A DNA stretch of 64,000 bases. Origin: Eledone cirrhosa (lineage: Eukaryota). Of the stretch, positions 6,583 through 59,400 are shown piece after piece. The DNA lies in NCBI GenBank assembly GCA_964016885.1, contig OZ024740.1, positions 24,366,001 through 24,430,000 of the forward strand, read 5' to 3'. A program made the position numbers and the translations under genes. The notes beneath the pieces were generated by a model, which saw only the letters and a list, made by a program, of their open reading frames with translations, made no database searches and was not told the origin of the DNA. The first letter of the stretch is position 1, and each line of letters starts with the position of its first letter.

Positions 6583-6698
6583 TAGGAAATGTTTAAGACC
6601 CCGACGGCAGAGCTCAAGCCGTTTCGACAGCTATTTCTGGTCCTGAAATAGCCGTTTCGACGGCTATTTCTGGTCCAGAAATAGACGTCGAAACGGCT
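6583..6698. repeat. Hairpin element family H, copy 1 (partial, internally duplicated)
   Basis: TAGGAA...ACCCCGACGGCAGAGCTCAAGCCGTTTCGAC...TTTCTGGTCCAGAAATAG..GTCGAAACGGCT, abutting PLE-2. Confidence 0.85.
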
Positions 6699-6699
6699 A

Positions 6700-8155
6700 G
6701 TTTTTATTTTAGACATATTACGTGTTAGATTCCCGGACTTCCACACGGGAATATACCGTGACGATGGACTGACTTTATCGAGCCATAAAAATAGTCACGA
6801 CCTCGATCGGTTTAAAAAAGACTTAGCTTCTACCTTCAATGAGTTAGGCCTTAGGATAACAGTAGCCACAAACCTCTCTAGCATAGATTTCTTAGACATT
6901 AATTTAGACCTTCGCACACCCACCCACAGACCTTTCCATAAGCTAAACGAGAAACTTAATTACATTCACAAGGATTCATGCCACCCTCCCACTGTTTTTA
7001 GAAACTTCGTTATGAATATCAATACTAGAATCTCAAACCTCTCCTCTAATAAGGCTATCTTTCACAGGGCGGCACTCTAATATAACACAGCGTTGGCTAA
7101 CAGCGGCTTCTCACAACCTATCACCTACTCTCCCACTAGCAACAACACCATTAAGAAAAGTAAGCGCATCAATAGACAAACTATCTGGTTCTCTCCTCCC
7201 TTCTCACTCAAAGTTAAAACCAATGTAGGAAAAAGATTTCTAGCTCTCTTAGTTAGACACTTACCCATAGGTCATAAATACCGCTCCACCTTTAACCGAC
7301 ACAAAGTTAAACTAGGATACTCCTGCGCTAAGAACATGAAGGCCCATATCACCAGCAGCCCTAGGAGAAGGACCCCATCAGGGTGCTCTTGCCATAAGCC
7401 TGAAGCTTGCCCCCTTCAACAGCAATGCAACACACCAGTTGTAATCTATGAAGCTGTGGTCACTTCCAACCGACCAAACGAACCACAGGAGGTCAAATCC
7501 TATGTGGGCATGGCGGAGGGCCGATTCAAGGAGCATTTCCTGAACCACCAGTCTACCTTCAGATACCCGGACAGACATTCATCCAGGAAACTCGCGAGCC
7601 ACGTATGGTCCCTCAAGGACTCAATTATAGGCTACTCCATTCAATGGAAAGCCATCACTAAGTCCAAGCCATACGCAAGGGGAAATCCGACGTGTGGCTT
7701 ATGTATTGACGAACGAATAACTATCCTAAAGAGATTGCGCAATAGTGATTGCCTAAACACGAGGTGTGAAATTTTCACACGTTGTCCACACGTCACCAAA
7801 CATCTATTGCATAACTACAAGGCTCCGGACTGATTCTTTGTAATTTTATTTTTTATTTTTTTAAATTTTATTTTCAACCTAAAGACTTTCCGGACTCTCG
7901 CAGTTATCTCCCCTACACCTCCATCACGCAGTCTAGTATTGCCTGTGTAAAGTGACCGAGTTTCTTCGCATGCGCTTTCGTACGGTTATCCTTCCTGTTC
8001 CTATAACCATACACATCCCGAGCTGAAGATCCGCGAAGGTGAAACAATTGTTCTCGGTATGGTGAACTAACTGTTGTGTAACCACTTCTACCTAACTGGT
8101 CCCTTGGACTGAGTGCTCTACCACTACGGATATTACCTTCCAGTGTTCCACCACT
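6700..8155 (+). mobile_element. 5'-truncated Penelope-like element PLE-2 (YRDDGL-type RT, probably Naiad-like)
   Basis: GIYRDDGL near 6748-6771. ORF 7093-7833 has IWFSPPFS, the CxC..CPL..C linker, GIY-YIG (VIY..YVG) and CGLC..LNTR..CPH. The 3' pLTR carries a hammerhead and ends in (TA)n. Confidence 0.92.
8018..8057 (+). ncRNA. Minimal type I hammerhead ribozyme in the PLE-2 pLTR
   Basis: ccgag-CTGAAGA-tccgcgaaggt-GAAA-caattg-TT-ctcgg: 5-bp stem I, palindromic stem III, GUU triplet. Confidence 0.8.
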
Positions 8156-8189
8156 ATATATATATATATATATATATATATATATATAT

Positions 8190-57631: not shown

Positions 57632-57758
57632 TAACCATAGTGAGTACAGCGAATTTTTTAACATTTATTTTGAAACGTTTTCTTATTTGCTAAACCTTGA
57701 TTATATATATATATATATATATATATATATATATATATATATATATATATATATATAT

Positions 57759-57879
57759 ATTATAAAGTAAAATGACAGGAGGCCAAATACGTTGAACTTC
57801 CTTAATTATTTATTTATGTAAACACTATGCACATTTCAGTGGCCAGGTTGCCTAAGAACAGGGTAACATCTTCAGGTAT
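57759..57879 (-). ncRNA. Inverted copy of 56661-56784 with a hammerhead
   Basis: Near-exact reverse complement. Confidence 0.75.
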
Positions 57880-59222
57880 ATAATACATATGTATACACGC
57901 ACACGCACACACACGCACACACAGACACACACACACACCCACATATAAATATATATATATATATTATATATACACATCTATATATATATATATACACACA
58001 TACACACATTCAGAGTAATTAATTCTTATTATGATCCTTACTAGACTAATCCTGTCTCAATCACTTTTAATGTAAACTTTGCTTTCAATTGCGGTTCTCT
58101 CCGTTTTTCAATTGGTAACATTTATTGTGTATGTTTGTATGTGGATGGGCCGGTAGTACAAATTGGAAGTGAAAGAGCGTAGAAGATTCCTACGACCACT
58201 ATTCATGATTCCCACTTTACGTTATTGATCCTAAAACAAAATGAAAGGCCCCAGGGTTATTTGATCAGAGAAATAGGAAAGGTGTTGAGGACTACACATT
58301 ATAAGACATTAAAACCAGTACTTGACCGATTGTGTCAAGTCATTGCTCTCTCAATTTTAATATTAAATATTGTCGTGCATTGACATTCTTCGTTCAATCA
58401 ACCACTTAATGAAAGAATCTGCAATTCTGAAGAATTCGCAGACTACATGATTGTTGTGTAGAGATATACTTCTCGAGTGTCATTATATGGAGAATATTTG
58501 AAAGTGAGTGGAAGAAGTGGTGTCGTTGCTGTGGTGGTAGTCGTTGTTATGGCAAGGTTTTGGTGGTATGTGATGGCCGGTGATTTAACATTTAAAACTA
58601 AGTGACTTAGCAATTTCTAACTAAATTTATTGTAATTGGTTATAAAGGAAAAATGCTTTAGTCGTAATCTACTTAAGTGTGAATAAAATTTGCAAGCTGG
58701 ATGGATGATTTAATTCATAATTAGGCGTCAGGCATAATACACAACTGCACTGGAAGTATCTAAACGCTAATTGTCTTGCTAGAAATAGCAGCTTAAAAAC
58801 CCTGACATTTCAAACACTGTCAACGTAAAAATTATAAGAAATACTTTAAACTAAGCTGTACTTGATGAACTATATCTAGAGAAGGAAAAGATCAAAATAT
58901 GAGACAGATGAGGCTGGAATATCAACGATTAGCAGTATTAGTTCCTTACTCTATTGCAATATAACCGCAACACAATACAGAAATATACATATACTAACTA
59001 GACACTGAAACAAATATACACACTCATGCAAATGTATTAGTACAGGAATGTACGTGATGGTCCTTCTATAGGTGCTGATCAGTGAATACACACACATATA
59101 CACATATATCTATACCTAAATATATATATATATTGTACACCCACATATACATATATATATATATATGTATATATTACACACACAAACACACACACACATA
59201 CACACACACATATTATATATAT

Positions 59223-59400
59223 ATAACGAAGGAAGTGTGGTAAGGAACCAGGTGGACCATAACGCACCAGAGTACTCGATACTTTGGGTATTAGAGTGGG
59301 TAATAGGAAAAGAGTCAGGATCCCGACGGCAGAGTTCAGTCCAGAAATAGCCGTCGAAACGGCTTGAGCTCTGCCGTCGGGGTCCTGACTACTTTCCCAT
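59223..59400. repeat. Family H copy 7
   Basis: Tail then hairpin, with a deletion in the left arm. Confidence 0.9.

Follow-up and report, generated by a model that had tools for sequence, protein, structure and literature searches.

A hairpin repeat family in the genome of Eledone cirrhosa consists of the termini of an autonomous Penelope-like element

The Hydra clade of Penelope-like elements (PLEs) with a C-terminal endonuclease (EN+; Craig et al. 2021, PMC8557442; e.g., Penelope-13_HM and Hydra-1_Obim) is among the described systems closest to a family of short repeats, family H, found in a 64,000-nucleotide stretch of the Eledone cirrhosa genome (GenBank assembly GCA_964016885.1, contig OZ024740.1, positions 24,366,001 to 24,430,000; hereafter the window). 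The Hydra clade is defined by an RWK motif, replacement of DKG by DKT, a CxCX5C linker, CxxC and CxH motifs flanking the E and N residues, the lack of a CCHH motif, and (TA)n targets (PMC8557442). PLE promoters have been placed in the pseudo-long terminal repeat (pLTR) (PMC2377424, PMC3846280, PMC8557442). In PAc, a Poseidon element of Anolis (Frangieh et al. 2024, PMC11167929), the PLE protein cuts both target strands of AT-rich DNA and extends them, and its reverse transcriptase (RT) has two internal start sites on the RNA, which delimit the tail. Penelope copies of Adineta vaga (Arkhipova et al. 2013, PMC3846280) have pLTRs inverted head-to-head with an optional tail on one arm; these copies are few and long and were attributed to antisense templates on which self-priming takes place.

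Family H does not stand as an element of its own. Its copies are the terminal 60–140 bases of an autonomous PLE, termed the parent here. A 140-nt stretch of the parent accounts for each copy in the window: an arm at +1 to +58, ending in TTCC, and a tail at +59 to +138, ending in TTCGT, where +1 is the A of AGTCCAG in an intact natural copy (L212). All window copies are adjoined by (TA)n or a related microsatellite, and five consist of a tailed arm head-to-head with a tail-less (free) arm. An earlier note, made from the letters of the window, had described a TA-targeted hairpin element in seven copies plus a relic at 50857–50894, and these positions were borne out, as were the conserved tail (78 nt) in six copies and the stems it quoted. 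The hairpin it ascribed to all copies is missing from two, since the copy at 36435 is one arm plus an inverted piece of tail and the copy at 6583 is one arm plus a different PLE. The family itself is real. A tail 25-mer present in five of the six window tails has at least 43,637 exact matches in the 3.0-Gb genome, a lower bound on the number of tails and far above chance (0 for the reversed control). A general repeat search of the window was dominated by microsatellites, and Rfam returned only matches to microRNA (miRNA) models and the like, all below the gathering score among the 150 of 244 matches listed.

The parent was recognized through a few junction-spanning copies that revealed sequence upstream of the hairpin "centre." A 24-mer from this sequence has 1,567 exact matches, which lead into a 3' untranslated region (UTR) and an open reading frame (ORF) with RT and GIY-YIG domains (L091, L092). 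At its other end, the tail continues into a 5' UTR and the ORF (227 exact matches of a 21-mer), and these matches include tandem arrays with a period of ~3.53 kb. In one array (L212 and L213), four 3,531-bp units show 0–1 nt of difference from one another, each with a 784-codon open frame whose ATG is at +232. Tandem or partial-tandem units forming pLTRs, an inverted truncated copy, and a one-ended tail were seen at L189, L210–L215, L217–L219, and L091. The arm and 78-nt tail are the pLTR and 5' UTR of an autonomous PLE. The earlier statement that the repeat has no ORF is correct for the short copies (stubs); elsewhere the same sequence runs straight into an intact ORF. Long copies linked to an RT ORF, which the earlier note proposed to look for, exist as intact tandem arrays, and its label of a minimal non-autonomous element is replaced by that of a terminus of an autonomous PLE.

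Several arrays (L212/L213, L189, L214/L215, L091) have a tailed arm at one border and a tail-less arm at the other, in the order TA, inverted tail and arm, body, arm without tail, TA. Since arrays share the layout of the stubs, family H is the shortest form of an ordinary PLE insertion. Stubs outnumber long copies by about 9:1, with only nine of 86 sampled tailed arms reaching the element body (beyond -200). Near-identical full-length tandem arrays occur at several loci (L210–L215, L217–L219), some with intact frames, and indicate, as judged from their sequences, that the youngest subfamily has been active very recently. Read depth over the arm and tail was 60–90x that of the adjoining ORF start in X1, one of four runs, which may be source data and is not counted as support. 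Two further arrangements were observed. Near 356.03 Mb on C2 of G000, a 299-bp unit is repeated 7.5 times head-to-tail with 99% similarity between the copies; it holds the arm, the tail, and the start of the 5' UTR, and the layout is retrozyme-like (L216:289–2527). At L102, an arm that stops close to +1 is followed, without a change of orientation, by parent 3' UTR sequence from about -670, through either a template jump at the RNA end or a deletion.

The parent ORF encodes 716 aa with the RT motif YRDD and a GIY-YIG domain. Pfam and PDB sequence searches with the protein gave no identification, and Pfam GIY-YIG scored only below its cut-off (E values of 0.069 and 0.0057). The structure predicted by AlphaFold (predicted local distance difference test, pLDDT, of 93) has TERT 3du5 as its best Foldseek match (E value of 1.3e-8). 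At least 2,203 protein relatives were found at E ≤ 1e-20 (8,000 scored), and the VIY..AYIG motif with the E and N residues is kept in at least 96 of 98 aligned homologues. Hydra motifs are present as RWR (RWK in 69 of 98), DKT, a CNCPDRSIC linker, CNLCSEE, and CKH; the GIY-YIG core has no cysteine pair (CCHH is absent), and the target is (TA)n. The features tested class the parent as an EN+ PLE, and its motifs place it, by prediction, in the Hydra type. An assignment to Nematis was given up once the Hydra motifs proved to be present.

With the Hydra clade the parent has in common RW(K/R), DKT, CxCX5C, CxxC/CxH, the absence of CCHH, a C-terminal GIY-YIG domain, a (TA)n target, and a hammerhead ribozyme (HHR; predicted for the parent) in the pLTR (PMC8557442). 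An inverted 5'-truncated copy, as seen for the parent, is noted for Penelope-13_HM in the supplement of that paper. The parent differs in its unit length (3.53 kb, compared with generally <3 kb for described Hydra families), in its tail (78 nt, compared with 30–40 bp described for PLEs), and in its predicted ribozyme, which has a U3-A8 core and a long stem II, whereas all Hydra HHRs listed in PMC8557442 have CUGANGA. Hydra-1_Obim, the one Hydra family listed from a cephalopod in the supplement, has a different HHR from the parent. The text of that supplement, which served as the named-family comparison, has 0 matches to AGTCCAGAA; it is possible that the family already has a name.

The parent region folds as a three-way junction in three of three subfamilies (z-scores of -0.3, -2.1, and -2.6). 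Its parts follow in the order stem I 5' strand GGAA(G/T)TACCCC, core TTGANAA, stem II, GAAAC, stem III, GTC, and stem I 3' strand GGGGTC..TTCC. Among 58 long copies, 19 of which are near-identical young repeats, TTGANAA is present in 53, GAAAC in 54, and GTC in 53. The N of TTGANAA (position 7) takes all four bases (G in 22, A in 15, C in 13, T in 3), and the rest is nearly fixed. The region has the three-stem junction, the C/U-UGAN-G/A-A and GAAA boxes, and the NUH site of a type I hammerhead, and it has the topology of a pLTR hammerhead with a U3-A8 variant core rather than the canonical one. Rfam gave no match to the parent terminus at E ≤ 10. A canonical CTGANGA core upstream of the arm was searched for; of 36 matches, 30 were inspected, and these proved to be accidents of junctions or to belong to partner families, none being the parent. 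The arm is the 3' half of this predicted hammerhead fold (UUGANAA core), and stubs begin after the core box and keep only that half. A minor cluster of ends at +36 to +46 (11 of 86) spans the predicted cleavage site and is confounded by a GCCGTC direct repeat.

The segment between GGAA and CCCC, which the earlier note considered copy-specific yet self-complementary within each copy, is the unpaired part of the 3' strand of stem I (the stem-I loop). It is more variable than the rest, as had been claimed, with 0.215 differences per nt between copies compared with 0.071 in the tail (n = 61), and this ~3-fold excess is likely due to its position in an unpaired loop of the hammerhead. Its variation resolves into subfamily haplotypes, an outcome that the earlier note itself had named as refuting its reading. 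Among 233 segments (loci L002–L186, a mixed selection that leaves out arrays and haplotype-selected loci), 11 haplotypes, each seen at least four times, account for 176 as exact matches and for 215 when one edit is allowed. Nine of the 12 window arm segments are at most one edit from a haplotype seen at least twice elsewhere, six of them exactly. Haplotypes are linked to single-copy tail sites: TCTTACTGGTTCC occurs with one tail type in nine of 13 cases, and TCATACTTTTTCC with another tail type in nine of 14. Self-pairing within a copy is perfect in one of the five two-armed window copies (49007), and the arms of the other four are 2–3 edits apart. Over 43 unselected copies with both segments parsed, the mean edit distance was 1.5 within copies, a value inflated by eroded ends, and 3.8 between copies. 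The covariation that the earlier note proposed to test is thus real but represents subfamily structure. The segment is a subfamily mark and not a copy-specific one.

Ends and junctions were mapped in an unselected sample drawn from the first 100 tail matches listed: 94 were retrieved, eight of these, identical over 125 nt, were dropped, and 86 copies remained. A terminal inverted arm of the same family is present in 62 of these, and 57 of the 62 end at +58 to +63, which is also where long direct copies terminate. The outer end of the tail is TTCGT|TA. Inner ends fall at -7 to +9 in 49 of the 62 free arms and at -7 to +7 in 39 of the 86 tailed arms, some of the negative values being alignment overrun. 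For the youngest subfamily, 60 of 2,940 pattern matches were fetched and 59 parsed; the junction-parsing script misread three rows of this set. The 59 copies have 40 junction types, mostly blunt or with 1–2 nt of microhomology. The fixed centre described earlier is therefore only a clustering of arm ends at about -4 to +7 of AGTCCAG, and because junctions differ from copy to copy, the proposal that both arms are newly made at each insertion holds. Of the 59 copies, 30 have a longer free arm, 19 have a longer tailed arm, and in 10 both arms are of equal length. The tailed arm carries the haplotype of the free arm in 55 of 59, compared with 12–13 of 61 tailed arms in the unselected sample. A clean haplotype mismatch between the arms of one copy was found at L302, L165, L166, and L003.

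Some arms are joined to other repeat families. TA-bounded head-to-head joins of this kind occur at L031, L043, L047, L036, L037, and L049, and also at window position 6583. The partner has its own hammerhead-like core at L031, L043, L047, L037, and L049; none was detected in the partner at L036. In the motif-selected set, the end of the partner family falls on one and the same base (AGTT...) in L031, L043, and L047, which suggests, from sequence, that it has its own fixed RNA 5' end. A one-nucleotide C/A variant has A in 62 free and 38 tailed arms (100 listed), and it pairs with C in 13 of 15 copies with a parsed partner; this role bias fits a mutation hot spot as well as it fits two templates. 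At L080 and L095, a tail-less H arm is followed directly, in tandem orientation, by the hammerhead and tail of the second PLE family of the window.

Taken with the parent, these ends suggest a mechanism to which we assign a probability of roughly 0.7: family H would be PLE termini produced by a double-strand cut in (TA)n and by two cDNAs that run off the RNA 5' end and are joined head-to-head. The RT-endonuclease would cut (TA)n on both strands. Two cDNAs, one on each strand of the cut, would begin where the tail (+138) and the arm (+58) end, respectively; each would extend to the nearby RNA 5' end and run off, and the two would be joined where they stopped. The inner end would be a capped transcription start in the pLTR. 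A tandem-array transcript would carry the arm and tail twice, near the cap and 3.5 kb downstream, so that initiation at the copy close to the cap would yield a cDNA of 60 or 140 nt and a stub, and initiation at the distal copy a long insertion. The two cDNAs of one insertion could derive from two RNA molecules; agreement of the arms within a copy would follow from the usual origin of both templates in whichever subfamily was then active. The involvement of a PLE and the targeting of TA named in the earlier note are upheld, and its idea of a defined RNA end is judged to be right.

Sequence motifs and base counts, together with the reported pLTR promoters, suggest that a transcription start forms the inner end. 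TTAGTC, TCAGTC, or TTAGTT is kept there across subfamilies and resembles the initiator (Inr) consensus. An untemplated G precedes A+6 in five of five such junctions of the young set. The ratio of G to A is 28:8 before +1 in arms abutting TA and 9:4 before +6 (100 of 110 listed). A 9-of-12 match to the motif ten element (MTE) at +18 from the A at -4 (chance of 0.005) was found post hoc and was not used.

Several points weigh against this mechanism. The cap-G signal has P values of 4e-6 to 1e-11 relative to TATATA[V]A but 0.003–0.5 relative to TATATA[V]AG, free arms show no enrichment of the untemplated G (5 of 17), and the count at +6 was made post hoc. The pattern that defines the young set limits total arm length, so the sharp bound at +1 is partly built in, and in the unselected set ends extend to -4. 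Inner ends coincide with the apex of hammerhead stem II, which would allow an RT pause or a nuclease cut, and unequal arms could result from later asymmetric deletion of the palindrome centre. The cross-family joins come from a CTGANGA-selected set and give no estimate of frequency; no such join was recognized in the 14 copies checked among 22 unpaired unselected copies.

The coincidence with stem II is the basis of an alternative with the same parent and the same two-primer insertion, in which the stem-II tip of a long RNA strongly stops the RT, or is cut by a nuclease, and so sets the inner end. In each of the three subfamilies folded, the ends do fall on the 3' side of the apical loop of stem II, and the cap-G evidence for a transcription start is not decisive. 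However, an RT would have to get through the GC-rich stems I and III and the outer part of stem II before halting in an AU-rich tip, the Inr-like motif is kept there while its flanks change, the partner family of L031, L043, and L047 (a selected set) also ends at one AGTT position, and the promoters reported for PLEs lie in the pLTR (sources cited above). We consider a stop at stem II unlikely. Fold-back, in which the second arm is copied from a single cDNA folded on itself at a defined end, was the first of two models in the earlier note and resembles the self-priming model of PMC3846280. The 55 of 59 concordant haplotypes would be expected from it, and short snap-back duplications at some junctions (window 6641–6698; L256) indicate that it seems to act locally. 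As the main route it is quite improbable, because junctions vary, either arm may be the longer, and arms are joined head-to-head to other families. The free arm exceeds its supposed template in the 30 copies noted above; in the copies at 36435, L126, L160, and L182 the free arm is full and no tailed arm remains that could have templated it; free arms end at +58, as long direct copies do; haplotypes can be mismatched; and the natural loop is not kept at the centres. Fold-back is contradicted as a general route unless most centres were deleted after insertion.

The stub could also be a self-propagating non-autonomous element, similar to a short interspersed nuclear element (SINE) or a retrozyme, that is copied whole with its structure under selection. 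The copy number is very high, some junction types recur (up to five of 59), and the 299-bp array at L216 contains an arm and tail. Against this, near-identical young copies have 40 junction types, the recurrent ones being what is expected from the commonest ends and 0–2 nt of microhomology; all stub haplotypes checked are subfamily marks, several of them found on long ORF-linked copies; and the 5' half of the ribozyme is missing from the stub. We regard this as the least probable explanation and very unlikely, although a minority of stubs may act as secondary templates. The earlier statement that the repeat is neither a SINE nor a miniature inverted-repeat transposable element (MITE) stands. 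No pol III head of tRNA, 5S, or 7SL origin, as in SINEs, was found (no tRNA in the window and no Rfam match on the parent terminus), the whole sequence being PLE-derived; with respect to MITEs, the tail forms one end, the parent is an RT element, and the inner junction is variable. The stubs also differ from retrozymes of the non-LTR type (LTR, long terminal repeat) in being head-to-head and in beginning downstream of the UUGANAA box.

Run-off of two cDNAs, as proposed here, was compared with other described systems. PAc is similar to family H in that both strands of an AT-rich target are cleaved and extended, two internal RT start sites bound the tail, an HHR lies at the pLTR-ORF junction, and a dimer is predicted (PMC11167929). 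The PAc tail lies inside the ORF, whereas the tail of the H parent is 5' UTR, and head-to-head joining of two cDNAs, run-off stubs, and cross-family pairs are not described in that work. The Adineta vaga Penelope copies resemble family H in their inverted pLTRs and one-armed tail, in palindromes at junctions, and in an Inr-like motif in the pLTR (PMC3846280); the tens of thousands of minimal H copies favor two sense-RNA cDNAs over the antisense self-priming invoked for those few long copies. Minimal hammerheads of PLEs (Cervera and de la Pena 2014, PMC4209133) include a U3-A8 core in the Schistosoma Cercyon pLTR and have high sequence heterogeneity, both as in family H, and many single motifs and opposite-strand pairs 100–700 bp apart were ascribed to truncated PLEs. 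Compared with these, stem III of family H is long and stable (5–6 bp with a 9-nt loop), and the stubs hold only the 3' half. Non-LTR retrozymes (Li et al. 2026, preprint 10.64898/2026.07.22.740005) are, as family H is, non-coding derivatives of PLE pLTRs, but they are head-to-tail tandems with a complete HHR per unit, whereas H stubs are head-to-head with half an HHR. No description of run-off stubs or of cross-family head-to-head PLE joins was found in the open-access papers searched.

Table 1. Copies of family H and joined sequences in the window (positions of the window; +n, position in the parent)
Feature	Position	Strand	Description
Tail-less (free) arm	6585..6640	-	+4..+58 of parent pLTR, end at TTCC|TA
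Junction	6641..6698	.	Short sense/antisense re-copies of the 5' part of the arm (snap-back duplications)
5'-truncated PLE of a different family	6699..8154	+	Head-to-head with H arm, no TA between
Hairpin stub	18007..18198	+	Inverted free arm 18007–18058, tailed arm 18062–18118, tail to 18198
Hairpin stub	26756..26947	-	Tail 26756–26835, tailed arm 26836–26892, free arm 26892–26947 on +
Stub without hairpin (copy 36435)	36438..36554	-	cDNA stopped inside tail 36438–36496, full free arm 36495–36554 on +
Hairpin stub	49010..49188	+	Inverted free arm 49010–49050 (internal deletion), full tailed arm from 49051, tail to 49188
Hairpin stub	49923..50103	-	Tail and full tailed arm 49923–50060, free arm 50061–50103 on +
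Arm relic	50857..50894	-	+6..+43, 79% to intact copy
Hairpin stub	59226..59397	-	Tail and tailed arm truncated at +28 (59226–59338), full free arm 59336–59397 on +

The PLE joined to the first arm in Table 1 has ~37% aa identity to the H parent, with RT motif YRDD, a CxCx5C linker, and a GIY-YIG domain interrupted by a single stop at 7078–7080; it has its own hammerhead core (CTGAAGA at 8023), its own tail, and (TA)n at its end. A second Hydra-type family, whose hammerhead is canonical (CTGAAGA), is represented by this copy and by another, also 5'-truncated, at 30408–31300, which starts with a short palindrome. By eye, the tail of this second family resembles the H tail in parts. Broken RT/GIY-YIG frames of other PLE types lie on the minus strand at 8705–11368, 680–2921, and 42401–42832, and include a YVDD-type RT with a C-terminal YIG endonuclease, among others. 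Other palindromic repeats occur in or near TA-rich DNA of the window at 3513–3902, 50199–50443, 45026–45216, 27263–27643, 49739–49889, 32402–32532, 18725–18837, 36298–36390, and 43777–43945. Both arms of the first three contain hammerhead-like cores (CTGANGA/CTGATAA..GAAA). These palindromes are likely stubs of other PLE families made in the same way.

The claim of a new class of mini-element falls, as family H is a PLE terminus and a by-product of a known kind of element. What is new is an apparently active Hydra-type family with a U3-A8 hammerhead. Automatic annotation would likely file such stubs as MITEs, SINEs, or miRNA-like hairpins. The origin of inverted and tailed PLE insertions is named as open in PMC8557442 and PMC11167929, and a very young, intact, high-copy family with subfamilies marked by single-nucleotide polymorphisms and with cross-family joins makes the question of one RNA or two testable. 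We give even odds to the broader proposition that PLE integration is bidirectional with two RNA molecules, perhaps of different PLE families, and that RT mostly initiates at the start sites nearer the cap, so that about nine in 10 insertions are dead hairpin stubs recording the transcription start. If two RNAs are indeed used, this genome would hold tens of thousands of snapshots of integration in vivo, and the inverted pLTR and tail that are a signature of PLEs would be explained without antisense self-priming.

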